A stretch of 64,000 bases of DNA from an uncultured Lachnospiraceae bacterium (GCA_910577955.1 CAJTNC010000016.1:6995-70994), one strand, 5' to 3'. Positions 1-59,662 are shown, counted from the stretch's first letter. Numbers and translations are program-made. Notes: a model not told the origin generated them from the letters alone.

Positions 1-1
1 C

Positions 2-739: not shown

Positions 740-786
740 CAATATGAGTTTTTGGAAAAACTGTATTGATATAGGTTGATGTATAT

Positions 787-2877: not shown

Positions 2878-2883
2878 TTGCCA

Positions 2884-4002: not shown

Positions 4003-4274
4003 AAATACGCATAGAAATAAAGTCCGTCTGTAATTGGTCAGGAAACATTGCTGATTATAGGATTTATACTGCTTTTGCTATGAGTTTTGGATAGCTTTTA
4101 TGCTACAGTTCAATAAGAAGTCCCATAATGCGTTTGCCGTTAATTTACTTTGTTGCGCAGTATATTATATGTCTCTTCATATTTTTTGCTTCGAAAGACC
4201 GAAAAGTTATATTATGAGGCTTTAGGAGAATTATTAAATCTTTAATTTTAGCAGTTGTATTTTAGGAGGTGTTT

Positions 4275-5054: not shown

Positions 5055-5104
5055 ATTAGAATTCTGCCATCTTAAAAAGATTTGTTATAAGGAGGTGGCG
5101 TAGA

Positions 5105-5851: not shown

Positions 5852-5885
5852 TCTGACATTTTAAGTGGAAGGAATTACGAAAAAT

Positions 5886-7481: not shown

Positions 7482-7523
7482 AACCGGCAAAGAGTAATTC
7501 GTAAATATGTGTGAGGAGCAAAT

Positions 7524-8066
7524 ATGTTACAAAATTATAATGAAGTTATAGAACTATCAAAGTTAAAGTGGTGTATTATTGATGTTGATGGTACTCTTAC
7601 TGATTCAGGAATTTATTTTGACAGTAATGGAAATGAATTGAAAAAGTTCTCTTCGCGGGATTTTGTAGGAGTAATGGCGGCGCATTATATAGGGGTCAAA
7701 ACGATGATAGTTACAGGACGAGAGTGTGCGGCGACAAAAAGACGTGCAGATGAAATGAGGGTTGACTACCTTTTTCAGCGTGTAAAGGACAAAAAAGGAT
7801 TTGTCAAAAAATTCATGGATGAAAATGGAATAGAAGCGTGCCAGCTTTGTTATATAGGCGATGATTTAAATGATTATGCATCTATGAAGCTTGCTGGTTT
7901 TATAGCTTGTCCCGCGGATGCATGTGAAGAAATAAAGGAGATGGCAAATTATGTGAGCTCTTTTAATGGAGGATGCGGAGTGCTTCAAGATGTTTTTCGA
8001 TATATTCTTTTAAAAACAGGAAAATGGGATAGATTTTTACAGGATGAAGTGGCGAAGGGGTACTAA
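7524..8066 (+). CDS. KdsC-like HAD-superfamily ulosonate-phosphate phosphatase
   Basis: HAD motif I 'IIDVDGTLTD', motif III/IV 'YIGDDLNDY', and a size of about 180 aa typical of the KdsC family. GAGGAG SD. Confidence 0.75.
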   Translation: MLQNYNEVIELSKLKWCIIDVDGTLTDSGIYFDSNGNELKKFSSRDFVGVMAAHYIGVKTMIVTGRECAATKRRADEMRVDYLFQRVKDKKGFVKKFMDENGIEACQLCYIGDDLNDYASMKLAGFIACPADACEEIKEMANYVSSFNGGCGVLQDVFRYILLKTGKWDRFLQDEVAKGY

Positions 8067-8412: not shown

Positions 8413-8853
8413 ATGTATACAAGTATTTTAGCCACATTACCTGTAATGATTTCAATTATTGCACTTATTGTTTCGTTTATGTCCTATAGAAATGAACGAA
8501 ATAATGTTATTTCAAATGTTGTATCGGCGGATAGAATCAAATGGATTTCAAGTGTCAGGGATTTAATGTCATTGTTTTTAGAAAAATATATAAATGGATC
8601 AGATCCTGAAGAATTAAAAGTTATAAAATCTAAGATAGATTTATATATAATATTTGATAAGGAAACTTATAATAAGTTTGAAGAAAAATTGAATCATTGC
8701 GTTGTAAATTCCTATACGGATAATGATTATAGGGAATTAGTAATTGAGACGCAGAAAATGCTCAACAGTGTTTGGATTCGAATAAAAACTGAAGCCGGAA
8801 TTGCAACGAAGGATGAAAGAAAAATCAATAAAATTTTAAATAAGAAGCAATGA
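8413..8853 (+). CDS. Small hypothetical protein: one N-terminal TM helix plus a helical, charged C-terminal part
   Basis: 146 aa. 'ILATLPVMISIIALIVSFMSY' is a TM anchor. GAGGAAAA SD. Very AT-rich, with no recognisable catalytic motif. Confidence 0.45.
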   Translation: MYTSILATLPVMISIIALIVSFMSYRNERNNVISNVVSADRIKWISSVRDLMSLFLEKYINGSDPEELKVIKSKIDLYIIFDKETYNKFEEKLNHCVVNSYTDNDYRELVIETQKMLNSVWIRIKTEAGIATKDERKINKILNKKQ

Positions 8854-9194: not shown

Positions 9195-10163
9195 ATGAGT
9201 AAAAGAAGCAGAAAAAGTTCCGCTGTGAAGGAGGCTAAAAGAAGACAGGAGGCAAAAGCAAATCTTCATTATAAAGATACGGTATTCCGTATGCTGTTCC
9301 GGGAGAAAAAGCGTCTGTTAGGGCTGTATAACGCGGTCAGTGGACGAAATTATGGTAATCCGGAAAAGCTGGATATCGTGACGTTAGAGAGCGCAGTGTA
9401 TCTGGGGATGAAAAACGATTTGGCGTTCATCATCGATATGAGACTGTACCTGTTTGAACATCAGTCAACCATGAACCCAAACATGCCTCTGAGATTTCTG
9501 CAGTATGTATCGGCGGAGTATGAGAAACTGATCATATCGAAAGACCTGCATAAGCAGGGGCAGGTAAAGATTCCCACGCCTCATTTCGTCGTGTTTTTTA
9601 ACGGGACAGAAAAGTGCGCGGAACGGCAGGAACTGCGGCTTTCGACTGCATATGAGGTGGCGGAGGAAGATCCGGAACTGGAACTGAGGGTGCAGGTCTT
9701 AAATATCAACGAGGGTTTTAATGAGGGGTTGAAAGAGGCGTGCCTGACGCTTAAAGAGTATATGCAGTATGTGGGTAAGGTTCGGACATATGCAGAGGAC
9801 ATCTCTGTAGACGAGGCTGTGGACAGAGCTGTGGATGAATGTATCGAGCAGGGGATTTTAAGAGAATTCCTGCTGCAGAACAAAGCGGAGGTAAGGCGCA
9901 TGAGTATTTTTGAGTATAATGAAGAAGCTGTGCGGCAGGCGCTTCGGGAAGAGGCCCGCGAGGAAGGATATGAAAAGGGAAGAGATCGAGGAAAGATAGA
10001 AGGAAAGATAGAAGATATCTTGTATTTACTGAAAGAAAAGGGGCCGGTTCCTGCGGAACTGGAGAAACAGATCAAGGAACAAAACGACGAAAATATTTTA
10101 CGGAAATGGCTAAAGCTTGCCGGCAGTGTGGGGAGCATCGAGGAATTCCGGATGGGAATATAA
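9195..10163 (+). CDS. Rpn-family recombination-promoting nuclease / putative transposase (PD-(D/E)XK, YhgA-like)
   Basis: N-terminus 'HYKDTVFRMLFREKKRLLGLYNAVSG...LDIVTLE...NDLAFIIDMRLYLFEHQST.NPNMPLRFLQY' matches the characteristic Rpn/YhgA-like core. The C-terminal part is a charged helical tail. Confidence 0.75.
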   Translation: MSKRSRKSSAVKEAKRRQEAKANLHYKDTVFRMLFREKKRLLGLYNAVSGRNYGNPEKLDIVTLESAVYLGMKNDLAFIIDMRLYLFEHQSTMNPNMPLRFLQYVSAEYEKLIISKDLHKQGQVKIPTPHFVVFFNGTEKCAERQELRLSTAYEVAEEDPELELRVQVLNINEGFNEGLKEACLTLKEYMQYVGKVRTYAEDISVDEAVDRAVDECIEQGILREFLLQNKAEVRRMSIFEYNEEAVRQALREEAREEGYEKGRDRGKIEGKIEDILYLLKEKGPVPAELEKQIKEQNDENILRKWLKLAGSVGSIEEFRMGI

Positions 10164-10519: not shown

Positions 10520-11041
10520 ATGGAGAATTTATTTGAATATAATATTATAATTATTTTTATAATATTTGTATTTATATTTATTTTAATTATTTCCATATAT
10601 TATTTAATTTTAAATCCGAAGAAAAAAAGGGTAAATAAAATAATTGAAAAATTCAAAAAGGAAGATTATATGCTTCCTCCTTACGCAGCTGAACGTTATG
10701 TTGTTTGGAATAATATGAGAAGCTTTTTCTACTTTTTGCATTATATGCTTACTTTATTAAGCGTATATGCTGGGCTAATGACGGTATATTATGCGTCAAG
10801 CGCAAATGATAAAAGTAATTGTATTATATTTTTGGCTTTATTATCAATGTGTTTTACAATTACAGGTATATTTTCTAATCCGCTTAGAACGGCTACAATG
10901 TCGCAACATGTATGGAGAGAATTGGATAGTTGCATAATTGCAATAATAAGCAATAAGCGCTGGTCAAAAGAAGAAAAGGACATGATACTAGCATATAAAA
11001 TAGCTCAATTGGAAAAGTATATTGAAACATATGAACGCTAA
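10520..11041 (+). CDS. Small hypothetical membrane protein (3 predicted TM helices plus a C-terminal helix)
   Basis: 173 aa. It has an extremely hydrophobic N-terminus 'IIIIFIIFVFIFILIISIYYLIL' and two further TM segments. Very AT-rich. It sits 67 nt upstream of the AbiH-like gene on the same strand. Confidence 0.45.
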   Translation: MENLFEYNIIIIFIIFVFIFILIISIYYLILNPKKKRVNKIIEKFKKEDYMLPPYAAERYVVWNNMRSFFYFLHYMLTLLSVYAGLMTVYYASSANDKSNCIIFLALLSMCFTITGIFSNPLRTATMSQHVWRELDSCIIAIISNKRWSKEEKDMILAYKIAQLEKYIETYER

Positions 11042-11120
11042 CTTTACAGAAGAAGGAGAAGAATCGTTTACATAGGCAGAACAGCGAGGCAGCCGGAGTT
11101 TCCGGCGGGTGGTAAAGAGT

Positions 11121-12527
11121 ATGCTATTTGATAAAGAATTGTTTGCATCAAAATATGTGGAATCTGATAAGCGAACGAATGTAGATACATTGATTCTTAT
11201 CGGAAACGGCTTTGATATCTGGCAGGGGCTGGATACAAGTTATGCATCTTTTGAAAAGTATTATGAAGCGCATCTGGATGAAGTGCTTACCCGTTTTCAT
11301 CTTAAGAAAAGAACACTTTTGGATAAAAATGGAAACATTATGTCAGATTGCACAGGCACTCCTGTTGTCTGTTCGGATGTTGAATTGTTTTATGGCGATC
11401 CGTTTCATCCGCAAAAGCTGCCACACGAGTTTTGGCGGGATTTTGAAACCGCTATGGATAAGGTGGATGATCAGGAAATAAATTATTTCTTTGGGCGCGA
11501 GGGAATTAAAGAGATTCAAAGGTGTGCAGATAACGCTCAGAGAATATTGAAAGAACTGTTCCGGGAATGGGTAATGTCAATTGATATCAGTGAGGAGATA
11601 CCGGAATATGAATTTGGCGATAATGTACTTTTTGTTAATTTTAATTATACCGATACACTGTTAAAACGTTTTGGCGTCAGGGAGATTAATGAATTTCACA
11701 TCCATGGCTCTGCGGATCAAAAAGAGTCTATTATTGTCGGACATGCAACACATCCGGAACTGCCATATGAGCCATTAAAAAACTTTAAGGATAAGCCGCG
11801 GTTTCAGGGGTTGTATTATATAGAGGAGTTTCTCTATAAAGCGGACAAGCATGTGGAAGATAACTATATGAAGCTGCAGGTATTTTGTGCGCTGCATGGA
11901 GCAAGGATCGAGGAGATAAAAAAGATATATGTGCTTGGACTGGGATTTGGAAATGCAGATTTAAGTTACATAAAACATTTTATCCATGAAACGCAGGGAA
12001 TAACAGAAAATCCGGAAGACAGTCTGTCTGGTGAAGAACTGTTTTATCTGAACTCTATGGATTATATGGGAATGATGAACCTGAACATGCACTATGCCAT
12101 TAGCCATCGGGAGCGGGTAATGAAAAAGGATCCGATCAGCTTTCCGGAATATGAACGTTTGGAGGACTTAATTGGCCCGTATGTGGAAGATCCGTATCAC
12201 CATATGGAACGGGACAGCCAAATGCGGCTGGAAGCGGCGGCAATCCGCCGGAGATTTTTGTCGGAACAGGAAGAGCGGAATAAAAAGATAAGGCGTGAAT
12301 ATTTGAGAATGCTGAACAAGAATCTGCATGTTGGATATACAGATCCGTCGGAGTTGTTCGTGAGACGGCGCGATAATGTTAAAAGACAGTCTGGTGCGGA
12401 ATGGCATATTTCATATTACAGTGATAAAGACTATAAAAGAATTGATGCGGTTATGAAAAATTATGGCTGCAATGATTATACGCTGCATGCTTCCATAAAT
12501 GAGTGCATAAACATATTTGCGAAATGA
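11121..12527 (+). CDS. AbiH-family abortive-infection protein
   Basis: 'LILIGNGFDIWQGLDTSY', 'FVNFNYTDTL' and 'EFHIHGS' are AbiH (PF14253-type) signatures. The start is ambiguous between GTG 11109 and ATG 11121. Confidence 0.7.
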   Translation: MLFDKELFASKYVESDKRTNVDTLILIGNGFDIWQGLDTSYASFEKYYEAHLDEVLTRFHLKKRTLLDKNGNIMSDCTGTPVVCSDVELFYGDPFHPQKLPHEFWRDFETAMDKVDDQEINYFFGREGIKEIQRCADNAQRILKELFREWVMSIDISEEIPEYEFGDNVLFVNFNYTDTLLKRFGVREINEFHIHGSADQKESIIVGHATHPELPYEPLKNFKDKPRFQGLYYIEEFLYKADKHVEDNYMKLQVFCALHGARIEEIKKIYVLGLGFGNADLSYIKHFIHETQGITENPEDSLSGEELFYLNSMDYMGMMNLNMHYAISHRERVMKKDPISFPEYERLEDLIGPYVEDPYHHMERDSQMRLEAAAIRRRFLSEQEERNKKIRREYLRMLNKNLHVGYTDPSELFVRRRDNVKRQSGAEWHISYYSDKDYKRIDAVMKNYGCNDYTLHASINECINIFAK

Positions 12528-12546
12528 CAGGCGGGGGGGAAACAAT

Positions 12547-13677
12547 ATGCAATTTCGTGATTTACAAAAACAGTATCAAATATTAAAACCCGATATGGAT
12601 ATAGCAATCGGTAAAGTGCTTGCAGACGGGAATTTTATTTCCGGCAGACAGGTGGCGGAATTGGAGGATCAGCTTGCAGCTTACGTGGGGGTGAAGCACT
12701 GTATTGCCTGCGGCAACGGCACAGATGCGCTGACATTGGCGCTGATGGTGTGGGATATCGGCTCGGGGGATGCCGTGTTTGTACCGGATTTTACATTTTT
12801 TGCATCCGGTGAGACACCGGCTTACGAGGGAGCAACGCCTGTATTTGTGGATGTGGAGGAGGATACTTTCAATATGTCTCCGACATCTTTGGAAGAGGCG
12901 GTATTAAAGATAAAAGAAGAAGGGAAACTGAGGCCGCGTGTGATTGTGGCAGTGGATCTTTTCGGACAGCCTGCGGATTATACGAGGATCCGTCAGATTG
13001 CGGAAAAGTATGACCTCTTGATTTTGGAGGACGGAGCGCAGGGCTTTGGCGGGCAGATCGGAGAACAGAGGGCCTGCAGTTTTGGCGATATTTCCACAAC
13101 TTCCTTTTTTCCGGCAAAGCCGCTTGGGTGCTATGGAGACGGCGGAGCGGTATTTACAGATCGTGACGAATGGGCAGAGCTGCTTCGTTCTTACCGCGTT
13201 CATGGAAAAGGGACGGACAAATATGATAATGTCCGGATTGGCATGAATTCCAGATTGGATACGCTGCAGGCAGCAGTCCTGCAGGTGAAATTGAAAGCAT
13301 TTGAAGAAAATGAACTGACGGCGGTCAACAGGGCTGCTGACTTCTATACGAAAAAACTGGGAACGATCGTGAAAACGCCGGAGGTCGGAGAAAACTTTTT
13401 CTCCAGCTGGGCACAGTATTCCATCCTTTTGAGAGACGAGGCGGAGCGCGACGGGCTTCAGGCTCATCTGAAAGGGAAAGGAATTCCCACGATGGTGTAC
13501 TATCCGAAACCGATGAGCAGACAGGGGGCATTTCAGGGCATTGATTGCGTGAAAACAGATTTGTCCGTTACTGCTGATTTGTGCACAAGAGTGCTGGCGC
13601 TGCCGATGCATCCGTATATAACGGAGGAAGAGCAGAATCAGGTGGTCGGGGAGATCAAGGCGTATATTTGTCAGTAA
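12547..13677 (+). CDS. DegT/DnrJ/EryC1/StrS-family PLP-dependent sugar aminotransferase (WbpE/PglE-like)
   Basis: 'FISGRQVAELEDQLAAYVGVKHCIACGNGTDAL', and 'SFFPAKPLGCYGDGG' containing the PLP lysine. The ATG at 12547 is preferred over the extended ORF at 12517. Confidence 0.85.
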   Translation: MQFRDLQKQYQILKPDMDIAIGKVLADGNFISGRQVAELEDQLAAYVGVKHCIACGNGTDALTLALMVWDIGSGDAVFVPDFTFFASGETPAYEGATPVFVDVEEDTFNMSPTSLEEAVLKIKEEGKLRPRVIVAVDLFGQPADYTRIRQIAEKYDLLILEDGAQGFGGQIGEQRACSFGDISTTSFFPAKPLGCYGDGGAVFTDRDEWAELLRSYRVHGKGTDKYDNVRIGMNSRLDTLQAAVLQVKLKAFEENELTAVNRAADFYTKKLGTIVKTPEVGENFFSSWAQYSILLRDEAERDGLQAHLKGKGIPTMVYYPKPMSRQGAFQGIDCVKTDLSVTADLCTRVLALPMHPYITEEEQNQVVGEIKAYICQ

Positions 13678-13918: not shown

Positions 13919-16900
13919 ATGGAGAAAAAGACAGTTGTTTTTATGCTGGAATACCTCCGAACAGGCGGATGGGGGGCGATCAGCGATTTTATCACTAAAT
14001 TTTCTGAAAGAATCCCCATGAATCGATCGGATACAGCTATTGCCTCTTCCTGTCTCTTTAAGGAATTTAAATCAGGCAGTAATTTTGATCTGGCTAAGTT
14101 AATTATAAAGAAAAGAGAAAAGTTTAAAAAGATCGAGAGACCGGAAAAAATATACGACGCAGGAGAAGAATACTATTATGTTTTCTTTATATCTGTACAG
14201 TATGAGCGTCTGGAGGACGTTGTGGATTTACAGAGTCTGTATTTGCTGATTGATGCGTGTGATACGGTCAAAGCCATTGCGCTCATAGAGGGAATACAAA
14301 AAGAATATCATAAGACATCGCACTTTTTTTCTTTTCTGACAGAACGCAAAGGTGGTATCTATGAAAGCATTTTTTTCAAATCTGATGATATCAAGCACTT
14401 ACAGAGGGCGGGAATAGGCACTTTATCAAGATTCCTGCCACTAATTCCTGTGAATAGATCCACAGAAAAACTTTTTCGGCAGAATGTCAGTGAGATAATA
14501 ACACAGGAACAGATAGTTCGGTGTCTCGAGGGATCAAAGGGAGAGGGAAAAAATACAGGTATTTGGGCAGGGGCATTAAAAAAACTCACTGAAAACCGTG
14601 GAAGATTGAAACAATGTGATTTGCAGCAGTGTGCTGCATATATGGGAAATGTTGAGACATTATCCTTTTTGTTGTTTTGCTTTTTTTTGGACGGAATCAA
14701 AGAAGATTTTTGGGATTTTGGGGGATTTAGCAGAGAATTTCAAAAAATCTCAATTTGGACAAACGGCTGTATCCAACTGATAGAAAATATTATTTTTCAC
14801 TCGGCTAATCAGAAAGGCGCTTTTTCTTTTCGGTTGTTGGAGAGTAATAATGTTTATCTGAAAAGTAAATATGGGATAGGGGACGATGAGAAAATCTGGC
14901 TTGAGTTGATGGTAACGGACTATCCGGGGCGTAGTCATACACGAAATATCGCGCAGAATTTTTGCGAGAATCTGGCAGAGGACAATATACGAAGTTGTTT
15001 TAAAGGCTTATCTCCGGAGGATTTTTTTGCGGAGGGAAATAAAGCGGAGATAGATGAAGCATGGAGGAAGTATTATCTGGACAAAGGAAATATGGTTAAT
15101 CATTATGGGCTGCGAATATTTCATAAAGCAGTGATTAAGAGCAACGGATATTTCATCATGCAGAGCCATTCCACGCATATCCCCAGAGAAGGGGAAAGAT
15201 TTTGTATGAGTCGGGATATTCGTGAAGAGAAAAATAAAATTTGTATGCCCGGGACAGGCTATTCTGTTTTGTTCCCTATAGTGCGGGAAGGAATTAAGAG
15301 GGAGTACATTGACTACGGGATTGAGAATTATGAAGGAAGGTTAAAGGATGACGATCAGTTTTTTGACTATGAGGTCATTCCCAAAAGGTTGTCGATTGCA
15401 GGCGATATTTCATCGGCTAAAACGAAACGAAAAACAATAAATGATCTGGCAAAGGAAATAGGAGACAACGAAAACAGCAAGAGTATTGTTTGTATTAATT
15501 GCGAAAATTTTCCGGGAAATCATGGAGAGATCGTGTACAAAGCTGTTAATCTTGCAATGCTCAAATATGAGAAGAATTTTCATGTTGTGCTGTATGGATG
15601 CCATTCGGAATTTGTGCAGGTGTTCCTGACGGCCGCATATTTGGGGTGGCAGAATCTGAAAGAGGAGTCGACCTATAATGGAAAAAAGCAGATTGCACTC
15701 TACACTGCAGGGCAGTATGAGGAAATACGCATTTTACCGGAGAACTGGTATGCAACATTAGAATTGAATCGAAAGAATAATTTTTCCAGAGAAACAAGGT
15801 GGGCAGACTACTTTGAAAAGTGGGACAGTGGAACAGCCCAAGAACGGGCTAAGACATATGTGGCGAATTATCCTTTTGACGTAGTGGCAACAGATGAACA
15901 GGGAAATACAATATTTGAAAAGTATGTGGAAACTGTTATAGAACGGAATATTCAGAGTGAAAAGCTTGGGTGCAAAATAGAGAATGTCCATATGCGCTTA
16001 GGATCCACCATTCACGTAAATCATTTTTACGAGGCCGAAATTTTATTCGGAAATTTTTATTTTGTGGAACGGTTTGCTATGTTGATGATCAAAAGCATGT
16101 GCAGGTCTGAAGAAAAGCCGCCGATTCAGAGTACTGACAAAGTGACGTTGTATGGATATAGCAATTATTCGGAGCAGACGGTGTACTGTACGATGCAGTT
16201 TCTGCGCAGGATGCTGCCGGGAATAGACGTTGACTATGCTATATTGGAGCGGGAAGCTGAGGAAAGGGGTTTTACACATGTGGATCGAATCAGGTACAGT
16301 ACTTATTTTGAAGAGGATGGGATAAAAAGGCGGAAAGAACATTTCCGATCCAGAAAAATAGTCTGTATCATTCCAATTGCCAGCACGCTAAAGACGAATG
16401 AGAAGATGATCAATTTATTTGCAGAAGAAAACGGGAAGGAAACCAGAGATGCGTTTTGGCATAATTTTGAGTTGATTTTAGTCGGATCAGCAGAAGATAA
16501 TGAATATTGGGAAAAAGAGGGGAAGCATATATCCGGAAAGAAAGGAATGGAAATATCTCCTGAACCGGAATTTTTTGTGGAGGTTGCATTGACATATATG
16601 GAACCGCTGAAATGTAATATGTGTTTTCCCGAGTGTATCATAGATGAGCAGCCGTTGGTGGAGGTAAATGCGGCCTCTACGATCCCCAATCAGGCTTTTG
16701 GGCTGATTGAGGAAAAATGCGGACTTCCTGCTATTACCAGAGACCAGATATTGCAGGAAGAAGAGAAGATGGAAATATTAAAGGATATTTTGATATATCG
16801 ACACATAGAAAAGAATGAGAACCATTTTCTTTTTTATTTTCAGTCTGAGAGACTGCTTATCAGGTATTCGGAAAAAATCAGGGATTGGCTTAAAGGAATA

Positions 16901-19900
16901 GGAGGGGAAATAAAGAAAAGCATAGCTCGTGAAGACTATGTGGTTCTGTTTTGTCCGGCTCATTTCAGCAATGCCGGATTTGTCGAATGCGTAAATAACT
17001 ATGTTTTCGGGAGTGCGGCAGTAGTCATACGGGACGATGTGGATAAAGAGTACAGATGCAATTTCAAAACGAAATTTTCAAATATGAGAAAGTTTGTAGA
17101 AAAAATTGCAAAGTATCAGTCAGATAACGGTGAGCGACAGAGGAGAATACATTTTTTCTATGTAGACGAAACGATTGTGACAGGGAACACTTTTCAAAGG
17201 GCGAAAAGTCTGGTGCAATCGGTCATAGGGGATTATGTGCTGTCGGAAAGGCAGAAATATGTGGTTTTTGAAGGGATTTTTGTCTTAATCGACCGAAATT
17301 CCAGATCCAGCAGATGGCAGTATACAGGACTGGGAGAGGAAGAACGCCTCTATGCATTCAGGACAATCCATATCTCTTCTGTCAGAAATCATGGTGATGC
17401 CTGTGTCTACTGTAATCTGGCAAAAGAGGCGGAGACATTGAAACGGAGTTCCGTGACAAAGACAATGGAAAAATACTGGGAATCTGAGGAAGAAAAGTTT
17501 TCTGTGAAGCCTCTGGTCAGATATCTGAGATATGGGGAAGAAAGCGGCGGGCAGCAGGAGGATGTAAAGAAAAAGCAGGAGGATGTAGAGAAAAAGAAAA
17601 AACGCGCGTTTCGGCGGCTGTGCTGTACGAATAATGCCATGGTATTTTTGAAAGATGAATACCATGGGAATCAGAAAGAGGTGGTGCTGGAGCAGCTCCT
17701 GACTTTGATATTGGAGGGGAGCGCCATACATGCAGGGGAAGAGGCGGAGTACTTTCTGTCTTATTGCAAAGTGCTCAGCAGACCTTTCCGGGTATTTGAC
17801 AAGGGCGTGAAGGAGGCGGTTTTTGATTTTCTGTTAGTGGCCTGCCAGAGCGCTCTGGCAGAAGAGCCTTATGGGGATATCATTAAAAGCAGTGTGAAGA
17901 AGCCATATTTAAGGAAAGAAAATATTAAGTTAAAGTTGTTGGATGTAGAAAGGTTTGTCCAAGATTATTTTCGGACTGGGGACATGTGGCAGGATCTGCT
18001 CAAGGTGCTGCTAAAACAGTTGACAGAGATGAAGAGCAATTTTATTCTCAGAGAAACCAATATGAGACAGATTCTGGAATACGCGAATGGATTAAATGAG
18101 GGGAATAAAATTAAGTTTCTCCAGTATTATAAATGCCTGACAAAAAGACTGACCGGAATCAGCTCGGATACCAGCAAGTGCCTGTGGCTGGATAATATGC
18201 TCAGAGACAGACCGGAACTTTTGAAACAGGCTGTCCCGCAGGATATTTATCTGGAAAATGTTTGGATCTATCAGGATGCTTTCCAAAAGTTGAATGGAAG
18301 GATAAGGGCTGCGGGATGGGCAGAAATTTTGGAGAGCAGTTCGGGCGATATTTCGGAAGAAAATCTGGCACGGTTTGAAAGGGAGGAGCTGGAAGAGCAC
18401 ATAACGCCATATCAATTTAAAGATTTTATTAAACTGCTGGAACTGTATGGTTTGAGAGAGGAAACGGCGGGATTTTGTGAAGAGGGGCGGGTCTTTGTGG
18501 CAGCAAATTATCTGCTGTACAAGTTTATATCGCAGGAATTTACCAAGTCACCGAAAAAAGCGGATCCTGCAAAGCAGGGGAATTTGGATAAGGTCGATCA
18601 TATTGCAGCGTGCATTAAACATATTATAAAGGCAAAGGATGTTGTCATTATGATGGAGTTTAATGCGGAATACGATCTATGGGAAAGCAAGCTTATTGAG
18701 CGTTACAATGCGCTGATGACGGAACCTCAAGGAAAAATAAAACATGATTTAAAAAAAGAGTATCTTGTTCTTGGAAGCAGCGGAGGGAGGAGCAAGGAAT
18801 GGACTATCAAAGAGAGTGAGGCCATCAGTTTGGTACAGAAAGTTCAGAATAAAAAGGGCTTGACAGAGAAAGAGTACTCATTTAGTCTAAAAGAAGGTAC
18901 GTTTCTTTGGGAAGTGGGCCATACTACGGAATATCCGGTATATATCTTTGCAAGATGGGAAGGCTCTGAACAGGGCAGTATGGCAGAGATAGACAGGCTG
19001 AACCGTATCCGAAGCGTTCTGCAGTATTGCTGGATGCTAAATGATTCTGTTTTTAATAAGGGAAATGAGGTCTTTTTCTATGAGATCGCACGTCAGCGGA
19101 AGCAGAATGCAATACAGAGCATGCAGAAAGCATATACGCATACAAAAAGCGATATCAGGATGGAACAGTACAATCATATGCTGAATAAAAAAAAGTATAA
19201 CGGGTATTTTCAGTCGGAACTGCTGATGCTGTTAGCAGATTTGAATGTGAGCGAGCATTACAGAAAAAGTCTGACAATGGATTATTACTTGGAAGGGATT
19301 CCGATGCGTCCTGAAAGATGGAATTCAGAGCTGTCGCTTTTCAAAGACATGAACAGTTTTTATATCTTAAACAGTGATGATGAAAAAGCTACAGAACTGA
19401 AGGTATCTAAGGAAGTGCTGTTTGAAGGAGATATTCCGCTGCAGGGAGATGAGGAAGTTATCGCGCTTGACTACACTAATGCGGAACGAGAGACGTTCCT
19501 GCTGATATATTCCTTGATGGTCAATGCGGTGACGGATGGCCGGGGCTTCATGGAAAATAATTGTGTGACGGTTTATTGCACCAAAACTGCCGGAGGACGG
19601 CTGCGGCTGGCGAACCGTATCGGGGCGGGGGCCGGAGTTCGTACGCCTGAACAGATTATGGAAGGGCTGAGATATCCTCCGGAGGAGGAAGGTCAGGGGA
19701 TTTCACTGTGGAGTATGTCTCGCTACATCAAACGAATGATAGCAAATTACCTGAATACGGATATAAAAAAACTGGAAAGATCGGCAGGGGATGTTGATCC
19801 TGCTTCTCTGATATTGCTGGGGAATAAGATCAAGAAAATGATGGGAGAGGAATTCCGGATAGATATCCGAAAGGAAAAGGTTGGGGATAAAGAATATTTT

Positions 19901-19942
19901 TCTGTATTGCTGCCCGTTTTTGCAGAAAAATATTATGAGTGA
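13919..19942 (+). CDS. Giant (2007 aa) cytoplasmic multidomain protein: N-terminal HATPase_c-like module, two PRTase-like modules, C-terminal histidine-kinase-like transmitter; function unknown
   Basis: Uninterrupted 6-kb ORF with an AGAGGGGG SD. Module 1 has 'ENIIFHSAN', 'VTDYPG', 'NHYGLRIF' and 'GTGYSVLFPI'. The PRTase-like PRPP loop is 'IHFFYVDETIVTGNT' followed by 'FVLIDRN'; a degenerate copy is 'IVCIIPIASTLKT'. The C-terminal module has 'MVNAVTDG', 'NRIGAGAG', 'GQGISLWSM' and 'YFSVLLPV'. No TM segment or signal peptide. Confidence 0.85.
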   Translation: MEKKTVVFMLEYLRTGGWGAISDFITKFSERIPMNRSDTAIASSCLFKEFKSGSNFDLAKLIIKKREKFKKIERPEKIYDAGEEYYYVFFISVQYERLEDVVDLQSLYLLIDACDTVKAIALIEGIQKEYHKTSHFFSFLTERKGGIYESIFFKSDDIKHLQRAGIGTLSRFLPLIPVNRSTEKLFRQNVSEIITQEQIVRCLEGSKGEGKNTGIWAGALKKLTENRGRLKQCDLQQCAAYMGNVETLSFLLFCFFLDGIKEDFWDFGGFSREFQKISIWTNGCIQLIENIIFHSANQKGAFSFRLLESNNVYLKSKYGIGDDEKIWLELMVTDYPGRSHTRNIAQNFCENLAEDNIRSCFKGLSPEDFFAEGNKAEIDEAWRKYYLDKGNMVNHYGLRIFHKAVIKSNGYFIMQSHSTHIPREGERFCMSRDIREEKNKICMPGTGYSVLFPIVREGIKREYIDYGIENYEGRLKDDDQFFDYEVIPKRLSIAGDISSAKTKRKTINDLAKEIGDNENSKSIVCINCENFPGNHGEIVYKAVNLAMLKYEKNFHVVLYGCHSEFVQVFLTAAYLGWQNLKEESTYNGKKQIALYTAGQYEEIRILPENWYATLELNRKNNFSRETRWADYFEKWDSGTAQERAKTYVANYPFDVVATDEQGNTIFEKYVETVIERNIQSEKLGCKIENVHMRLGSTIHVNHFYEAEILFGNFYFVERFAMLMIKSMCRSEEKPPIQSTDKVTLYGYSNYSEQTVYCTMQFLRRMLPGIDVDYAILEREAEERGFTHVDRIRYSTYFEEDGIKRRKEHFRSRKIVCIIPIASTLKTNEKMINLFAEENGKETRDAFWHNFELILVGSAEDNEYWEKEGKHISGKKGMEISPEPEFFVEVALTYMEPLKCNMCFPECIIDEQPLVEVNAASTIPNQAFGLIEEKCGLPAITRDQILQEEEKMEILKDILIYRHIEKNENHFLFYFQSERLLIRYSEKIRDWLKGIGGEIKKSIAREDYVVLFCPAHFSNAGFVECVNNYVFGSAAVVIRDDVDKEYRCNFKTKFSNMRKFVEKIAKYQSDNGERQRRIHFFYVDETIVTGNTFQRAKSLVQSVIGDYVLSERQKYVVFEGIFVLIDRNSRSSRWQYTGLGEEERLYAFRTIHISSVRNHGDACVYCNLAKEAETLKRSSVTKTMEKYWESEEEKFSVKPLVRYLRYGEESGGQQEDVKKKQEDVEKKKKRAFRRLCCTNNAMVFLKDEYHGNQKEVVLEQLLTLILEGSAIHAGEEAEYFLSYCKVLSRPFRVFDKGVKEAVFDFLLVACQSALAEEPYGDIIKSSVKKPYLRKENIKLKLLDVERFVQDYFRTGDMWQDLLKVLLKQLTEMKSNFILRETNMRQILEYANGLNEGNKIKFLQYYKCLTKRLTGISSDTSKCLWLDNMLRDRPELLKQAVPQDIYLENVWIYQDAFQKLNGRIRAAGWAEILESSSGDISEENLARFEREELEEHITPYQFKDFIKLLELYGLREETAGFCEEGRVFVAANYLLYKFISQEFTKSPKKADPAKQGNLDKVDHIAACIKHIIKAKDVVIMMEFNAEYDLWESKLIERYNALMTEPQGKIKHDLKKEYLVLGSSGGRSKEWTIKESEAISLVQKVQNKKGLTEKEYSFSLKEGTFLWEVGHTTEYPVYIFARWEGSEQGSMAEIDRLNRIRSVLQYCWMLNDSVFNKGNEVFFYEIARQRKQNAIQSMQKAYTHTKSDIRMEQYNHMLNKKKYNGYFQSELLMLLADLNVSEHYRKSLTMDYYLEGIPMRPERWNSELSLFKDMNSFYILNSDDEKATELKVSKEVLFEGDIPLQGDEEVIALDYTNAERETFLLIYSLMVNAVTDGRGFMENNCVTVYCTKTAGGRLRLANRIGAGAGVRTPEQIMEGLRYPPEEEGQGISLWSMSRYIKRMIANYLNTDIKKLERSAGDVDPASLILLGNKIKKMMGEEFRIDIRKEKVGDKEYFSVLLPVFAEKYYE

Positions 19943-19959: not shown

Positions 19960-20448
19960 ATGAAAAGAATTGTGATAGTTGAAGACAGACCGTGGAAAAT
20001 GCGGAGTTGCATTAAGGAACTGCAGAGCAAGGGGATAACCTTCTATAAGACAATATACTATCGCAACAATTCATTAGATACGAAGACACAGGAAGAATTG
20101 CTGAATCAGTATATTGAGGATACAGGCATGGAAATCGAGAGGGTGAACAGTCAGGAAGAATTTGTGAGCAAAATGGATGATGCGTATCAAGTTTCCGATA
20201 CTATTTTTCTGATGGATTATGATCTGAAAGGAGATATGAACAGGGAAGACTTTTTTACGAGAGTCAATGTGAGGTATGCGCTTGCAAGGGACAAAGAACG
20301 GATATGGTTCTATACGACAGGGCCAAGCGATATCAAGGGAATACTGTTGGATACTTTTCCCGACCATGTAATCAGCGTAAAGGTTACGGACAATATGCAG
20401 GGATTCTGGGATGAGGAACAGATAAGGGCTGCCGTTCAGACCGGTTAA
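19960..20448 (+). CDS. Stand-alone receiver (CheY-like REC) domain protein
   Basis: 'RIVIVEDRP' is a beta1 strand with an acidic pair. 'TIFLMDYDLKGD' holds the candidate phospho-Asp D86, 'IWFYTTGP' holds T119/T120, and 'VISVK' holds K141. The D-T-K spacing (33/22) mirrors CheY D57-T87-K109. GGTGAGGAGG SD lies 6 nt before the ATG, 17 nt after the giant ORF stop. Confidence 0.6.
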   Translation: MKRIVIVEDRPWKMRSCIKELQSKGITFYKTIYYRNNSLDTKTQEELLNQYIEDTGMEIERVNSQEEFVSKMDDAYQVSDTIFLMDYDLKGDMNREDFFTRVNVRYALARDKERIWFYTTGPSDIKGILLDTFPDHVISVKVTDNMQGFWDEEQIRAAVQTG

Positions 20449-20466: not shown

Positions 20467-21558
20467 ATGGATATTTTGTACTATTATACAACGGCAGAGA
20501 CAATGAAATATATTCTGACGCAGGGAGATATATTTGCCACGCATATCAGTTATCTGAACGATTCGGAAGAGTATGTGAATGGTTTGCGGGAACTCAGAGA
20601 GGTGTTTTCAGGAGAGAGTCTGAGAGAACTGTGCGGCACAGGAATAAAAGAATATCTGGAAGGGGAAGCTTATGAAGACGCGCTGAAAGATATTCCGCAG
20701 ATTTATTCTATCTCTTTTTCAAAAGAAGCAGATTTGTTGAGCCAGTGGTATATGTATGCGAGGGAATCCGGTGTCCGTCTGGGGATGCTGTTTTCCGGAG
20801 AAAAGCAGAACTTTAAAATAAAGCAGAAGGATGCAAAAGGGTTGAAAGCTCCGGATGATAAGATGAGGGAGGCAGAGGCATCCTTAAAGGATGTACATTA
20901 TTTTACCCGGATAGGTATGTCGTTGGAGGAATATACTGAAGCAACGGAATCTATTGCGCAGATTGTGAAAGAATATGCGGAAGAGCTTGGAGTAGATGAT
21001 TTTGACGCGAATGCTGTCCGACTTTGGAAAGGGATCGCGCCTTACATAAAAAATTATGAATTTCGGCAGGAAAGAGAAGTAAGGCTTGTATTTGATGCCG
21101 TTATTCGGGGGGCAAGCAGTTCCTATGTGGATCTGATAGAATACCGGAATGGGAACGGAGTTCTGATTCCTTATCTGGATGTATACCGTGAAAAGGGCTG
21201 GCCCGTTGTAGAGATTATGGTAGGTCCGGGCAGAAATCAGGACAGGGTGTTCCGCAGCATCTGTCATTTTGTGGACAATAATAGTTTAAAGATTCCGGAA
21301 ATAGACCAGAAGGAGAGCGTGAGGCGCTTCATGGGGGGTATGTCCTCCTATCAGGTAGAACAGAATCAGATTGAGGCATATTGCGGAGAAATTGATAAGA
21401 GCGTTGCAGAGGGAGGAAAAATTATAACCCATAAAAGTGCGGCGTATGAAATCTTAAAAAAGAAAACAGGCCGCGAACGGGAATATTTGGAAAGAAATTA
21501 TTATTCTAATTGCGGAATCATTGTGAGAAAGTCTAATGCGCCGTATGTTTTTTCCTAA
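20467..21558 (+). CDS. DUF2971-like protein (unknown function)
   Basis: 'ILYYYTTAETMKYILTQGDIFATHISYLNDSEE', 'IYSISFSKEADLLSQWYMYA' and 'IKNYEFRQEREVRLV' match the three conserved blocks I associate with DUF2971. AGGAG SD lies 7 nt upstream, 18 nt after the REC gene. Confidence 0.6.
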   Translation: MDILYYYTTAETMKYILTQGDIFATHISYLNDSEEYVNGLRELREVFSGESLRELCGTGIKEYLEGEAYEDALKDIPQIYSISFSKEADLLSQWYMYARESGVRLGMLFSGEKQNFKIKQKDAKGLKAPDDKMREAEASLKDVHYFTRIGMSLEEYTEATESIAQIVKEYAEELGVDDFDANAVRLWKGIAPYIKNYEFRQEREVRLVFDAVIRGASSSYVDLIEYRNGNGVLIPYLDVYREKGWPVVEIMVGPGRNQDRVFRSICHFVDNNSLKIPEIDQKESVRRFMGGMSSYQVEQNQIEAYCGEIDKSVAEGGKIITHKSAAYEILKKKTGREREYLERNYYSNCGIIVRKSNAPYVFS

Positions 21559-21567
21559 ATTTAAACA

Positions 21568-23352
21568 CTAGCTCACCTTGTAAACATAAATATGATACCA
21601 GCTATCCTCGGTTTCAAAAGGGGCTTCCCGCAAAAGGGACAGTCCCTTTTTTTCTGCATCCATCAGGTATGCGGCGGAAAAAACATACTGACAGTTCAAT
21701 TCTTTTAACACTTCCGTATTCAGATCAAGGTCATAGATCACACTGTTCCATTTTTTTTCAAATGTATAGTAGTTTGCCTGTTCGGCGGTAGTAATATAGC
21801 AGCGGTTTCCCCACGAATCAAAGAATGTTTGGACGTAGTCGTTTTTTTGAAGTTCCCCCTCGATGATCCGGCGGAACGTGTGCTTGTATTCCAACGGATA
21901 ATTGTTGGAGTAACCGTCCAGACAATAAAATCCGTTGTAGGCCGCGGCAGCAGGATAAATGCCGATACTGACAACGCGGTACTCCTCTTTCGGCTTTCCG
22001 ATGGCTTCTTCGATCTGGCTGAAAATATCCTCCGAGAAAAAATTATTCCAGTCTAAAGCGTAGTAATTGCCGCCTTTTAACAGCTTGGCAAGATTAGGGT
22101 AGAGGGCGCTGTGAAACAGTACCGTTAAGCACCAGAAGCCGAGCGATGCAAAAACTACAGCCTGTCCGAACAGGCGCTTTATAGGCGCATCGTCAAATAA
22201 TTCAACAACAAATGAAAGCAGATACGCGGCCAGAACACACCATGCAGCCGGCAGCAGCCAGTTCACCCGGCTAAGGTTGAAAGTCTTTAAAAGTCCGTCT
22301 GAGGCGTTTCGAAGTCCGGTCATGAAAGTTCCATGATAAAAACAGGAAAACAGACATATCATAATAATAGCCAGCAGAGTTATGGAAGCTTTAAAAAGCA
22401 GTGCGTTAGAGGAGGCGGGCATTTTCAAAGCGGAAGGTATTCCGTTTTTTCGGACCCTCAAGGTGCATTGGATGAGAGGAATCAGCAGGCACAGGCCGAT
22501 CAGGAATAAAAGCACGATGTGGTAACTTTGTGCGTAATCGGCGCCTTTTCCAAAGAGAGCCTTAAAATGGGAGAACGGCTCTACGGGAGAAAGAACAAGT
22601 TCGGTTTTGTGGCTGATATATGTGCTGCGGGGAATAAGGACTTGTTTTGCCAGTTCCAGATTGCAAAGGATATAGGTAAGCAGTAAAACTAAGGTGGAAA
22701 GCCACGGTGAAAGAGGGATTCTGCGTTTAGAGCGCAGCGCCTGAATGCTCTGAAAAACTGCAAAGATTCCCAGAACAAGCAGGCAGGCGAATCCCACCAA
22801 CACAGGGGAGGAGGAAGCGCCGTAAAAGAGGATCAGCAAATAGTAAAAGAGTTTTCGCTTATTTTCATGCAGCGACAGTACCGCGTAAAACAGCAGCGGC
22901 TGACCGGGAATACAGAGCCCGTACACAGGGTAAAAGGGCAACAGCATAAAAATAACGGAAATGCTGAAGGAGATAAATTCCCGCCCTGTAAGTTTAGACA
23001 AAAGCAGGTACATTCCGACAAAAGCCACAAGGTACACAAGCCATTGTGACAGCATAAAAGCGCAAAAAGGCTCAAAAAAGACGTAAAGCAGGACGAGAAG
23101 CGGAGCGGGCGGAACGGCGCCTGCCGCCGGAAGCCCGTTCATGATTTCGGGGTAAACGCGGACATCCGTAAACAGATATCTGGCTGCCAGTATATAATTT
23201 AACAGTTCTCCGTCCAGTTGGTCATGATAGGTGACGATACTGCCTGTGCCCAACAGTATATATGGCATCATAAGACAGACTGACAGTAAGAGTCCCGCAC
23301 AAAGATATAAGGTTTTTTTGTGCGTATGGTAAAAAGTAAATAATGTTTTCAT
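21568..23352 (-). CDS. Polytopic membrane protein with a C-terminal extracytoplasmic domain (DUF6044/YfhO-like glycopolymer-associated; tentative)
   Basis: 594 aa with about 12 TM helices, then a soluble ~170-aa C-terminus. It is one of three supported minus-strand genes in the window. Its stop is 9 nt from the stop of the DUF2971 gene. Confidence 0.65.
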   Translation of the reverse strand: MKTLFTFYHTHKKTLYLCAGLLLSVCLMMPYILLGTGSIVTYHDQLDGELLNYILAARYLFTDVRVYPEIMNGLPAAGAVPPAPLLVLLYVFFEPFCAFMLSQWLVYLVAFVGMYLLLSKLTGREFISFSISVIFMLLPFYPVYGLCIPGQPLLFYAVLSLHENKRKLFYYLLILFYGASSSPVLVGFACLLVLGIFAVFQSIQALRSKRRIPLSPWLSTLVLLLTYILCNLELAKQVLIPRSTYISHKTELVLSPVEPFSHFKALFGKGADYAQSYHIVLLFLIGLCLLIPLIQCTLRVRKNGIPSALKMPASSNALLFKASITLLAIIMICLFSCFYHGTFMTGLRNASDGLLKTFNLSRVNWLLPAAWCVLAAYLLSFVVELFDDAPIKRLFGQAVVFASLGFWCLTVLFHSALYPNLAKLLKGGNYYALDWNNFFSEDIFSQIEEAIGKPKEEYRVVSIGIYPAAAAYNGFYCLDGYSNNYPLEYKHTFRRIIEGELQKNDYVQTFFDSWGNRCYITTAEQANYYTFEKKWNSVIYDLDLNTEVLKELNCQYVFSAAYLMDAEKKGLSLLREAPFETEDSWYHIYVYKVS

Positions 23353-23458
23353 AAAAATATAATAATAAGGAAAGGGCAGTCTGTCAACTCCCCCTTGCCC
23401 ATTCAGTCGGCCTGTGATAAAATTAGAAAATGTAAAAAAATAGGAAATGAGGACAATT

Positions 23459-24457
23459 ATGTTAAACGATAAAACAATTTTGATTACCGGAGGAACAGGA
23501 ACTTTTGGAAATGCTTTTGTGCGTTATGTGCTGGAGCATTATGAGCCCAAAAAACTGATTATTTATTCCAGAGATGAATTTAAGCAGTTTCTGATGCAGA
23601 ATGAGTTGAGACAATATAAGGACAAGCTGCGCTTTTTTATCGGCGATGTGCGCGACAGAGAGAGGCTTAACAGAGCTTTTGACGGCGTGGACTATGTGAT
23701 CCATGCGGCGGCGATGAAGCAGGTGCCGGCCTGTGAGTACAATCCCGATGAGGCTATCAAGACCAACATTCAGGGAGCGCAGAATGTGACGGCGGCGGCT
23801 TTGGATGCGGGGGTAAAAAAAGTTGTGGCGCTCTCCACCGACAAGGCGGTCAATCCCGTCAATCTGTACGGCGGCACGAAACTGGTGTCCGATAAGCTGT
23901 TCATTGCGGCGAACGCATATGCCGGAAAGAAAGAGACCTGCTTTTCTATTGTCCGCTATGGAAATGTGGCGGGCAGCAGGGGATCTGTCATTCCGTTTTT
24001 CAGAAATATTATCGAACAGGGAGGGAAGGAACTGCCGATCACAGATTACCGCATGACTCGCTTCTGGATCAGCATCACGCAGGGCGTGGAACTGGTGATC
24101 AAAGCGTTGGAGGAATCACGGGGCGGCGAGACATTTATCTCCAGAATTCCTTCCTTTAAGATCACCGATCTGGCGCAGGCGATGCTGCCGGGCTGCGAGA
24201 TGCCGGAGGTGGGTATTCGTGAGGGAGAAAAATTGCATGAGATCATGGTGACGGAGGAAGATGCGCCGACCACCTATGAGTATGATAAGCATTTTATCAT
24301 CTTTCCGCAGATGATCTGGAACAGCAGGCAGAAGCCCAATCCTGACGGTCTCGGAAAGAAGGTGCCGGATAGATTTTCCTATAGTTCCGGCAACAATGCA
24401 CAGTGGATGTCGGTGGAAGAGATCAGAGAGAGGCTGGCGCATCTGGAGGAGCACTGA
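23459..24457 (+). CDS. pseB: UDP-N-acetylglucosamine 4,6-dehydratase (inverting), PseB/FlaA1-type
   Basis: 'MLNDKTILITGGTGTFGNAF', 'YSRDEFKQ', 'GDVRD' and 'YGGTKLVSDKLF' (YxxxK). About 332 aa. GAGGA lies 5 nt before ATG 23459. Confidence 0.8.
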   Translation: MLNDKTILITGGTGTFGNAFVRYVLEHYEPKKLIIYSRDEFKQFLMQNELRQYKDKLRFFIGDVRDRERLNRAFDGVDYVIHAAAMKQVPACEYNPDEAIKTNIQGAQNVTAAALDAGVKKVVALSTDKAVNPVNLYGGTKLVSDKLFIAANAYAGKKETCFSIVRYGNVAGSRGSVIPFFRNIIEQGGKELPITDYRMTRFWISITQGVELVIKALEESRGGETFISRIPSFKITDLAQAMLPGCEMPEVGIREGEKLHEIMVTEEDAPTTYEYDKHFIIFPQMIWNSRQKPNPDGLGKKVPDRFSYSSGNNAQWMSVEEIRERLAHLEEH

Positions 24458-59540: not shown

Positions 59541-59662
59541 TATAGAGAAGTTCTTCGGGGCAGGGTGAAATTCCCGATTGGCGGTACAGTCCGCGAGCGC
59601 GAGCGCAGGATTTGGTGAAATTCCAAAACCAACAGTATAGTCTGGATGAAAGAAGAAACTGT
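59541..59662 (+). promoter_or_regulatory. FMN riboswitch (RFN element) aptamer
   Basis: 'CTTCGGGGCAGGGTGAAATTCCCGATTGGCGGTACAGTCCGCGAGC...GGATTTGGTGAAATTCCAAAACCAACAGTATAGTCTGGATGAAAGAAG' matches the conserved RFN core almost base for base. Confidence 0.9.

Follow-up and report, generated by a model that had tools for sequence, protein, structure and literature searches.

What does a bacterium do with a single soluble polypeptide of 2007 residues that carries ATPase-like motifs at both of its ends? The question is raised by an open reading frame (ORF) within 64,000 nucleotides (nt) of an uncultured Lachnospiraceae bacterium (GCA_910577955.1 CAJTNC010000016.1:6995-70994), a stretch that we analysed as a whole and call the window, and from whose first letter all positions are counted. 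A sequence-only reading had proposed that this giant protein contains two modules of the GHKL (HATPase_c) type at opposite ends, in a layout that is not standard for a sensor kinase, a judgement with which we agree. According to profile comparisons, structure models and fold searches, its C-terminal end is organized like a histidine kinase (HK), its N-terminal module is probably a divergent GHKL-like domain, and its centre holds two tandem phosphoribosyltransferase (PRTase) folds. The gene heads a conserved three-gene operon, together with genes for a receiver-like protein and for a DUF2971 protein resembling ADP-ribosyltransferases (ARTs). On balance, we favour the view that this operon is an abortive-infection or anti-phage system following two-component logic in a Detocs-like manner, with the giant protein as its cytosolic sensor and signalling subunit.

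Results

A giant protein from a large family without annotation

The interval 13919-19942 is one uninterrupted plus-strand ORF, as the sequence-only reading had it. The maximum Kyte-Doolittle mean over 19 residues is 1.49 and no segment is transmembrane-like, so that the description of the product as soluble holds. Full-length homologues (n = 42) measure about 2000 residues; the few that carry a name in their source are hypothetical proteins, and Pfam domains were found in only four distant ones, those named being Metallophos in P0041 and P0042 and HATPase_c in P0043. Repeating the homologue search with a profile of 36 sequences yielded just one extra protein, P0043, and a scan of species-representative genomes returned 60 related loci from Lachnospiraceae, Oscillospiraceae, Christensenellaceae, Acutalibacteraceae, Gastranaerophilales, Bacteroidales, Bifidobacteriaceae, Anaeroplasmataceae and Herbivorax. 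Furthermore, a profile of the N-terminal module matched 702 clusters (50% identity) with E <= 1e-3, of which 495 stayed at E <= 1e-10; among the matches listed, the majority have about 2000 residues and carry the module at about residues 240-480, and many of the others are split, truncated or shorter proteins. Nothing meaningful came from PDB sequences when these were searched with the 2007-residue protein (phmmer with the single sequence, and family profiles), nor from sequence and profile searches of the PDB with either module or with both partner proteins. The giant protein is a member of a large family that carries no annotation.

AlphaFold2 (AF2) models were obtained for residues 1-1200, with a mean predicted local distance difference test score (pLDDT) of 74.2, and for residues 1201-2007, based on a 19-sequence alignment, with a pLDDT of 81.6 and a predicted template modelling score of 0.76. 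From the N- to the C-terminus they predict an alpha/beta domain, GHKL-like module 1 (probable), a further alpha/beta domain, two PRTase folds each followed by a CxxC pair, an alpha-solenoid, a PAS/GAF-like domain, a hairpin resembling the dimerization and histidine phosphotransfer (DHp) domain, and a catalytic and ATP-binding (CA) domain of the HK type (Table 1). The earlier reading had recognized both GHKL-type modules from their motifs, and it had missed the kinase-like unit of DHp plus CA type with its invariant histidine, the asparagine at the G1 position, the two PRTase folds and the three-gene operon.

Table 1. Features of the giant gene, its product and the two partner genes (aa, amino acid; REC, receiver)
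Feature	Position (nt)	Strand	Basis
Giant ORF, 2007 aa, putative sensor and signalling subunit	13919..19942	+	ORF list, translation
N-terminal alpha/beta domain, aa ~1-210	13919..14548	+	AF2 pLDDT about 80-90, alternating strands and helices; no profile match
Module 1, probable divergent GHKL/HATPase_c-like domain, aa 267-455	14717..15283	+	motif conservation, secondary-structure order
Alpha/beta (Rossmann-like) domain, aa ~485-620	15371..15778	+	secondary-structure pattern; K541 invariant, K503 invariant or nearly so
Motif GCKIENxHMRLGSTIHVNHFYEAEILFGN, aa 684-712	15968..16054	+	conservation profile, invariant residues
PRTase-fold domain 1, aa ~740-905, degenerate phosphate loop IIPIASTLKT, then CxxC (C899, C902)	16136..16633	+	Foldseek, AF2
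PRTase-fold domain 2, aa ~955-1167, canonical phosphoribosyl pyrophosphate (PRPP)-type loop FFYVDETIVTGNT, then CxxC (C1162, C1165)	16781..17419	+	Foldseek, hhalign
Alpha-helical solenoid, aa ~1213-1545	17555..18553	+	all-helical AF2 model, pLDDT about 85-93
PAS/GAF-like alpha/beta domain, aa ~1574-1680	18638..18958	+	strand/helix pattern in AF2 model
DHp-like helical hairpin, aa ~1690-1784	18986..19270	+	AF2 helices, Foldseek, conserved His
Module 2, HK-type CA (Bergerat) domain, aa 1797-2000	19307..19918	+	Foldseek, hhalign, secondary-structure order
Partner 1, 162-aa divergent REC-like protein, true start 19960	19960..20448	+	synteny, hhalign
Partner 2, 363-aa DUF2971 (ART-like) protein	20467..21558	+	PF11185 in orthologues, invariant residues

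The C-terminal end resembles a histidine kinase

The best Foldseek matches in the PDB to the model of residues 1201-2007 are histidine kinases and their relatives, namely LOV-HK chimeras, phytochrome A, a full-length bacteriophytochrome, ChpT, KinB, RetS and HprS, with probabilities of 0.91-0.96 for the best and E-values of 3.8e-3 to 0.07 for the top matches and up to 0.5. The alignments to ChpT, KinB, RetS and HprS extend over 260-315 columns, the size of a DHp plus a CA domain, and those to the LOV-HK chimeras, the bacteriophytochrome and phytochrome A over 370-600 columns, reaching beyond this unit into the sensor part. By hhalign, module 2 aligned with HK CA references in register from the N-box to G2 (37.6%, E 3.4e-4), where the reference set was small and weak, as the true-positive control, the C-terminus of P0043, itself reached only 84.7%; the loci supplied only two HK domains with which to improve it. 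At the same C-terminal position (residues 1636-1715) the distant homologue P0043 passes the Pfam HATPase_c model PF02518 with 35.7 bits against a cut-off of 26.4, whereas module 2 of the window protein has no match to PF02518 and one of 32 relatives reaches E 0.067. Taken together, the top Foldseek matches, the hhalign register and the Pfam pass of P0043 lead us to accept module 2, as modelled, as an HK-type Bergerat domain.

In the AF2 model of this domain, a helix with N1869 is followed by a beta-hairpin whose end is N1899, by a short lid helix and by a long one starting from G1927-I-S; an extra helix and a last hairpin complete it. All four strings singled out earlier lie where they had been placed (MVNAVTDG 1867-1874, NRIGAGAG 1899-1906, GQGISLWSM 1925-1933 and YFSVLLPV 1993-2000), as do those of module 1 (ENIIFHSAN 289-297, VTDYPG 332-337, NHYGLRIF 394-401 and GTGYSVLFPI 445-454), and they are more than chance matches, because their residues are invariant or kept in at least 90% of the sequences across the family alignments. 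Thus, no exchange of the G2 glycine G1927 occurs in alignment A4 (32 sequences), and at least 90% of A1 and A7 keep it; N1899 and I1928 are kept in at least 90% of A4, and N1869 and N1899 in at least 90% of A1 and A7.

Upstream of module 2, helices 1714-1733, 1744-1755 and 1757-1784 surround His1741 (nt 19139-19141), which is invariant in the 32- and 19-sequence alignments within KAxTHTKxDI. By its position and conservation His1741 would suit the role of a phospho-acceptor; its HTxxD motif is unlike known H-boxes, including that of HisKA.

A notable trait of module 2 is the asparagine N1899 in place of the G1 aspartate, which P0043 shares (ENNG aligned to DdGxG). The adenine-binding G1 aspartate is present in all working GHKL ATPases that are known, and its exchange for asparagine abolishes ATP binding in the well-studied Hsp90 (D79N) and GyrB (D73N), so that the residue argues against the usual mode of ATP binding in module 2. 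Module 2 may instead be a docking pseudo-CA domain like ChpT, with module 1, whose Asn290 and Asp334 are intact, providing ATP and catalysis, or it may use another nucleotide.

Module 1 is probably a second, divergent GHKL-like domain

Among 46 module-1 sequences with a mutual identity of at most 40%, N290, D334, H395, G397 and G410 are invariant, and Q286, E289, H294, G445, T446 and P453 are kept in at least 90%. In the AF2 model the N-box asparagine N290 sits on a helix (267-294) that contains Q286-L-I-E-N290, followed by a strand (300-307), a short helix and a strand (326-334) at whose C-terminal end lies the G1 aspartate D334, the later glycines being partly kept (DYPG). A helical insert of about 55 residues (lid 344-385) then leads to a helix (389-407) with HYG at its start and to strands 411-417, 427-429 and 445-454, the last of which begins with T446. 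The module is compatible with a Bergerat fold, because four conserved positions fall in the expected order and on the expected secondary-structure elements.

Profiles respond to this module faintly. HATPase_c is the sole Pfam family to match more than one of the 46 segments, although sub-threshold (2 of 46, best E 3.4e-4), and it appears at E 0.013 in one of 33 N-terminal parts. Alignment by hhalign with HK and GHL references gave no significant match (0.25-6%, one box aligned at a time), and a deeper profile, built from 181 sequences, left the score no higher. The MORC-like type suggested by the sequence-only reading gained no support, and MORC or MutL type was set aside for module 1, as the MutL/GyrB/Hsp90 reference aligned at the N-box only (hhalign 0.25%). 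In the fold search with the 1200-residue model, the BFVD list contains three histidine kinases of viruses, all among its top 26 matches, and also a MutL-like ATPase, with probabilities of 0.08-0.35. The top 50 PDB fold matches of this model contain no GHKL structure, an absence that is uninformative because PRTases saturate the list. Hence, of the two GHKL-type modules proposed, the second is supported by segment modelling and profile comparison and the first is plausible on conserved motifs and secondary structure, set against its low hhalign values; we regard module 1 as probably a divergent GHKL/HATPase_c-like domain. Its status as a separable unit is supported by locus L069 (L069:2816-11180), where the giant protein is split after module 1 into one of 772 aa (N-terminal domain and module 1) and one of 1344 aa (the rest), followed by genes for a 189-aa receiver-like and a 460-aa DUF2971-like protein and then by an AAA_15/AAA_21 gene pair.

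Two PRTase folds and other central domains

The Foldseek list in the PDB for the model of residues 1-1200 is filled with type I PRTases (OPRT, HPRT, purine PRTase and PyrR) at a probability of 1.00, with E-values of 2e-4 to 1e-2 and TM(target) of 0.4-0.55, and viral PRTases likewise head the BFVD list. The model thus places two tandem type I PRTase-fold domains at the centre of the giant protein. In domain 2 the PRPP loop reads FFYVD1083-E-T-I-V-T-G1089-N-T1091, of which the two acidic residues and the following xxTGxT are conserved (VD1083-E/D-x-I-x-T-G1089-x-T1091); it aligns in register with PRTase references, with a low hhalign probability of 4.7%. The loop of domain 1 (PIASTLKT) has no PRPP motif and has lost the acidic residues. 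The CxxC pair after each fold (C899/C902 and C1162/C1165) is invariant. None of the Pfam PRTase models was matched by the giant protein or by the N-terminal parts of its homologues. The role of these domains is probably ligand sensing rather than effector activity.

Directly before the first PRTase fold, residues 684-712 form the best-conserved stretch of the family, with several invariant His, Gly and Ser residues and a pLDDT below 50 at 678-698. The solenoid contains invariant residues as well (SRPF at 1287-1290, K1420 and E1446-N1447), and karyopherin/CRM1-type solenoids are among its lower Foldseek matches. Residues 1-280 and 1200-1700 had earlier been described as free of any nameable motif; this holds for profiles, since Pfam, NCBIfam and PADLOC give no match there, but the structure models resolve domains in both stretches.

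A conserved operon with receiver-like and DUF2971 genes

In related loci the giant gene is immediately followed by homologues of partner 1. Against REC references partner 1 reached 65% by hhalign, with D86 aligned to the phospho-aspartate D57 of CheY and with D9 and T119 as further key positions, and against Pfam Response_reg E 0.088 only. The equivalent gene of divergent loci scored 79.6% against REC and 73.5% against partner 1 of the window type, and the gene after that of P0043 encodes a clear receiver with the Asp and Lys-Pro motifs (hhalign 95%, E 4e-8). Two weak matches to PF24390 had made a PRTase another candidate for partner 1, which was rejected with an hhalign probability of 0.7% for PRTases as opposed to 65% for REC.

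Partner 2 belongs to DUF2971: PF11185 matches 33 of 38 orthologues (best 2.4e-7), the window copy scoring 16.8 bits, below the cut-off of 22, and Y97 and E202-x-E204 are invariant in the orthologues. DUF2971 has an ART fold of the H-Y-E clade and is related to DarT (PMC12522546), and it is the domain of Aristaios, a single-gene antiphage protein (PMC11381338). Of the 60 loci, 46 have a DUF2971 gene downstream, separated from the giant gene by the receiver-like one; these loci belong to Lachnospiraceae, Oscillospiraceae, Christensenellaceae, Gastranaerophilales, Bacteroidales, Bifidobacteriaceae and others. The giant, receiver-like and DUF2971 genes form a conserved three-gene operon.

In some members the kinase-like end is replaced by a metallophosphatase fused at the C-terminus (P0041, P0042, P0173, L049, L051 and L055), and in others a metallophosphatase of about 750 aa is encoded by the next gene (L045, L047, L050, L053, L054 and L058). 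These members have neither the receiver-like nor the DUF2971 gene, and metallophosphatase and DUF2971 partner are mutually exclusive (9 loci versus 46, with one overlapping locus); four loci with no detected partner (L021, L033, L041 and L059) appear to be cut by contig ends. This exclusivity implies that the kinase-like end is functionally tied to the receiver-like and ART-like genes, and that the conserved N-terminal 1200-1500 residues are paired with exchangeable outputs. L052 is also listed among the calcineurin-like metallophosphatase variants. Downstream of the metallophosphatase-type member of L045, at L045:14252-15937, inspection by eye showed two ORFs, one GNAT acetyltransferase-like and the other TIR-like at its N-terminus.

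Genomic context

An AbiH gene lies 1.4 kb upstream of the giant gene, at 11109-12527 on the plus strand (Pfam 1.4e-33, PADLOC 1.6e-14). Like AbiH, three ORFs that match neither Pfam nor PADLOC (8413-8853, 9195-10163 and 10520-11041) are located between upstream sugar-biosynthesis genes, and the group may be another defence insertion into this low-GC region. Elsewhere, too, the neighbourhoods of family members are rich in defence-type genes, such as two AAA_15/21 genes, a UvrD-like helicase, DUF4062 and two NACHT genes in L064, FokI/Mrr in L066, Uma2, AAA_15/21 and PDDEXK_9 in L061, AAA_15/21 in L069 and a TIR protein (TIR-like by eye) in L045. The GC content of the operon is 41.7%, as opposed to 48.9% in the window to its right and 49.8% in the neighbouring DegT gene.

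In the window, the operon and AbiH interrupt a glycan cluster of the nonulosonic-acid type (1-8066, 12517-13677 and 23447-24457), whose genes encode two CMP-sugar cytidylyltransferases (CTP_transf_3), a polysialyltransferase/GT52-like protein, HMGL-like proteins, a Polysacc_synt flippase, a DegT aminotransferase and a Polysacc_synt_2 dehydratase. In unrelated genomes (L061, L062, L063 and L065), genes of the CTP_transf_like and C2185-like_N types repeatedly stand beside family members, a pattern that could stem from an insertion hotspot or from a functional tie to glycopolymer synthesis.

Other features of the window are a DUF6044 gene at 21568-23352 on the minus strand (E 1.4e-118), convergent with the operon end and the sole long minus-strand gene in that part, and a flavin mononucleotide (FMN) riboswitch at 59547-59661 on the plus strand (RF00050, 108 bits, E 3e-24), upstream of ORFs from 59612 and 59712. 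GC content is 33-46% in 1-22000 and 45-52% in 22000-64000, GC skew is strongly positive throughout the window (+0.14 to +0.30), and the plus strand carries nearly all long ORFs.

Discussion

Domain folds, invariant residues, synteny and co-variation come out of the computation, and the signalling steps of our model are inferred. In the proposed system, the N-terminal and central part of the giant protein would sense an infection cue; in this part, the PRTase folds would bind nucleotides or ribose phosphates and module 1 would be a switch driven by ATP. Sensing would activate the phosphorylation of His1741, the phosphoryl group would pass from there to Asp86 of the receiver-like protein, and the latter would then license, activate or release the DUF2971 enzyme, which, with its Tyr and ExE intact, would ADP-ribosylate a nucleic-acid or protein target and thereby stop growth. 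In its most extended form, which we put forward tentatively and hold to be rather less likely than the operon-level model, the proposal describes a widespread immune family (about 500-700 clusters at 50% identity), in which a sensor of about 2000 residues with a GHKL ATPase and tandem PRTase ligand-binding folds would drive an atypical HK module with Asn for Asp (by ATP catalysis in trans from module 1, or with another nucleotide), and this module in turn a divergent receiver and a DUF2971 ART, the whole output unit being interchangeable with a metallophosphatase.

Several observations weigh against the defence model and its parts. The full 2007-residue protein has no match in Pfam, NCBIfam or PADLOC at E <= 1, partner 1 has none above threshold in these collections, and tblastn with the conserved core found no match in phage and plasmid collections. 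The Bergerat fold of module 1 is probable rather than established. At the kinase-like end every Foldseek HK match has E > 1e-3, the G1 aspartate (DxGxG) is replaced by Asn1899 in at least 90% of the family, and a low-pLDDT break (1735-1740, local pLDDT below 50) adjoins His1741. Partner 1 has no conserved Lys-Pro and a REC probability of just 65%. No receiver-like region was found in the DUF2971 partner and the operon has one receiver-like gene only, so that the coupling of receiver to DUF2971 enzyme is purely what we infer. Finally, the frequent position of the family within surface-glycopolymer gene clusters leaves room for a non-immune role.

This position is the starting point of a metabolic alternative, in which the operon would be a regulatory or metabolic sensor for surface glycopolymer synthesis, the PRTase folds would sense PRPP or nucleotide-sugar status, and the receiver-like protein would direct the ADP-ribosylation of a target. 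The window operon indeed lies among two CTP_transf_3 genes, a polysialyltransferase-like gene, DegT and Polysacc_synt_2, and comparable neighbours recur elsewhere (epimerases, GT2, GT87 and Glyphos_transf in L061; GT1 and Epimerase_2 in L064; CTP_transf_like and C2185-like_N in L062, L063 and L065; DegT-like or PseB-like matches in several other loci). However, the flanking sugar genes vary between loci whereas the three operon genes are constant, the same clusters are interleaved with defence genes, and the operon has a lower GC content than the neighbouring DegT gene. Moreover, variable glycan loci are known insertion hotspots, and the swapping of C-terminal output modules is typical of immune systems. 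The relatives of DUF2971 are toxins or an antiphage protein (PMC11381338, PMC12522546). We therefore consider the metabolic alternative improbable. It is scarcely better placed, and quite unlikely in our estimation, that the giant protein acts enzymatically in nucleotide chemistry, with an active PRTase that would make or destroy a nucleotide-derived signal or deplete PRPP or nucleotides, in the manner of ShosT and the PRTase effectors of retrons, while the kinase-like end is regulatory only. Domain 2 does retain the acidic-acidic-x-x-T-G-x-T loop within a strong fold match, and ShosTA, type III retrons and Ophion use PRTases as defence effectors (PMC12961424, PMC12746101, 10.1101/2025.09.30.679545), but no Pfam PRTase model matched and domain 1 has lost its acidic residues. 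In addition, a separate toxin-like effector gene (DUF2971) or a metallophosphatase is always present, which suggests that the conserved core is a sensor and not an effector.

A narrower objection concerns the number of GHKL-type domains. Module 2 could be the only one, module 1 being an unrelated alpha/beta domain with a chance likeness to the motifs and the protein a very large atypical kinase-like sensor. The low, single-box hhalign alignments of module 1 would fit this view, as would the PDB profile searches and the top 50 PDB fold matches, neither of which contained a GHKL match, and the window's lack of a Pfam match. We hold it to be unlikely all the same, given that four conserved positions of module 1 stand in Bergerat order on the expected elements, that HATPase_c alone among Pfam families matches more than one segment, and that three of the few viral histidine kinases of BFVD are found in the top 26, though with low probability, while the PDB list is PRTase-saturated and the reference profiles are weak (true positive 85%).

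If this model is true, a second, unrelated lineage of phosphorelay-based immunity would exist beside Detocs, DUF2971 ARTs would gain a defined upstream regulator, and PRTase folds would act in defence as sensors and not as effectors. The kinase module with Asn for Asp, next to an intact-looking second GHKL module, also raises a question that lends itself to direct testing: could a histidine kinase divide its catalytic and its phospho-acceptor functions over 1400 residues? Members of the family are common among gut Clostridia and entirely without annotation, and naming their parts would annotate 702 clusters (50% identity) of proteins of about 2000 aa each.

In the searched literature we found no description of this architecture, and its components are best understood by comparison with known systems. 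With the type I PRTases, including the defence PRTases ShosT, the effectors of type III retrons and OpnC of Ophion, the giant protein shares the type I fold and, in domain 2, the PRPP-loop motif; unlike them, it carries a tandem pair in the middle of a giant protein, undetected by PRTase profiles and with a degenerate first copy. Cysteine pairs are associated with the PRTase fold also in the zinc-finger PRTases of the ComFC type. Partner 2 has, like Aristaios and the DarT-like ART clade, the DUF2971 domain (PF11185) with a conserved Tyr and ExE. Aristaios acts in abortive infection as the product of a single gene (PMC11381338), whereas the DUF2971 protein described here never stands alone and follows the giant and receiver-like genes, which implies a regulated rather than a constitutive or self-sensing activity.

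The kinase-like end is reminiscent of histidine kinases, ChpT and Spo0B in its PAS/GAF-like domain, its predicted hairpin with a conserved His, its sandwich with N-box, G1 and G2 in the usual order and the adjacent receiver-like gene. It differs in that the window protein stays below all profile thresholds, in the Asn at G1 and the H-box HTxxD, which is unlike HisKA, in an N-terminal extension of 1550 residues with the second GHKL-like module, and in a receiver-like partner that has no Lys-Pro.

Two-component defence has precedents in Detocs (10.1101/2023.01.24.525353) and Ambrosia (10.1101/2025.09.30.679545). Detocs is a defensive two-component system consisting of the sensor kinase DtcA, the stand-alone receiver DtcB and the receiver-effector DtcC (Rousset et al., 10.1101/2023.01.24.525353). 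As to homology with DtcA, DtcB or DtcC, no PADLOC model was matched by the giant protein at E <= 1 or by the partners at E <= 0.1, in a release whose content of Detocs models was not checked. The sensor of 2007 residues described here adds a GHKL-like domain and two PRTase folds and has Asn in place of the G1 Asp; its ART-like DUF2971 effector is not fused to a receiver, and a single receiver-like protein stands in the operon, with no second receiver acting as a buffer. What both systems have in common is the set of three genes, for a large cytosolic repeat-containing sensor of the kinase type, a small stand-alone protein of the receiver type and a toxic or toxin-like effector of an exchangeable kind, and abortive infection by phosphotransfer would be the logic expected of such a set.

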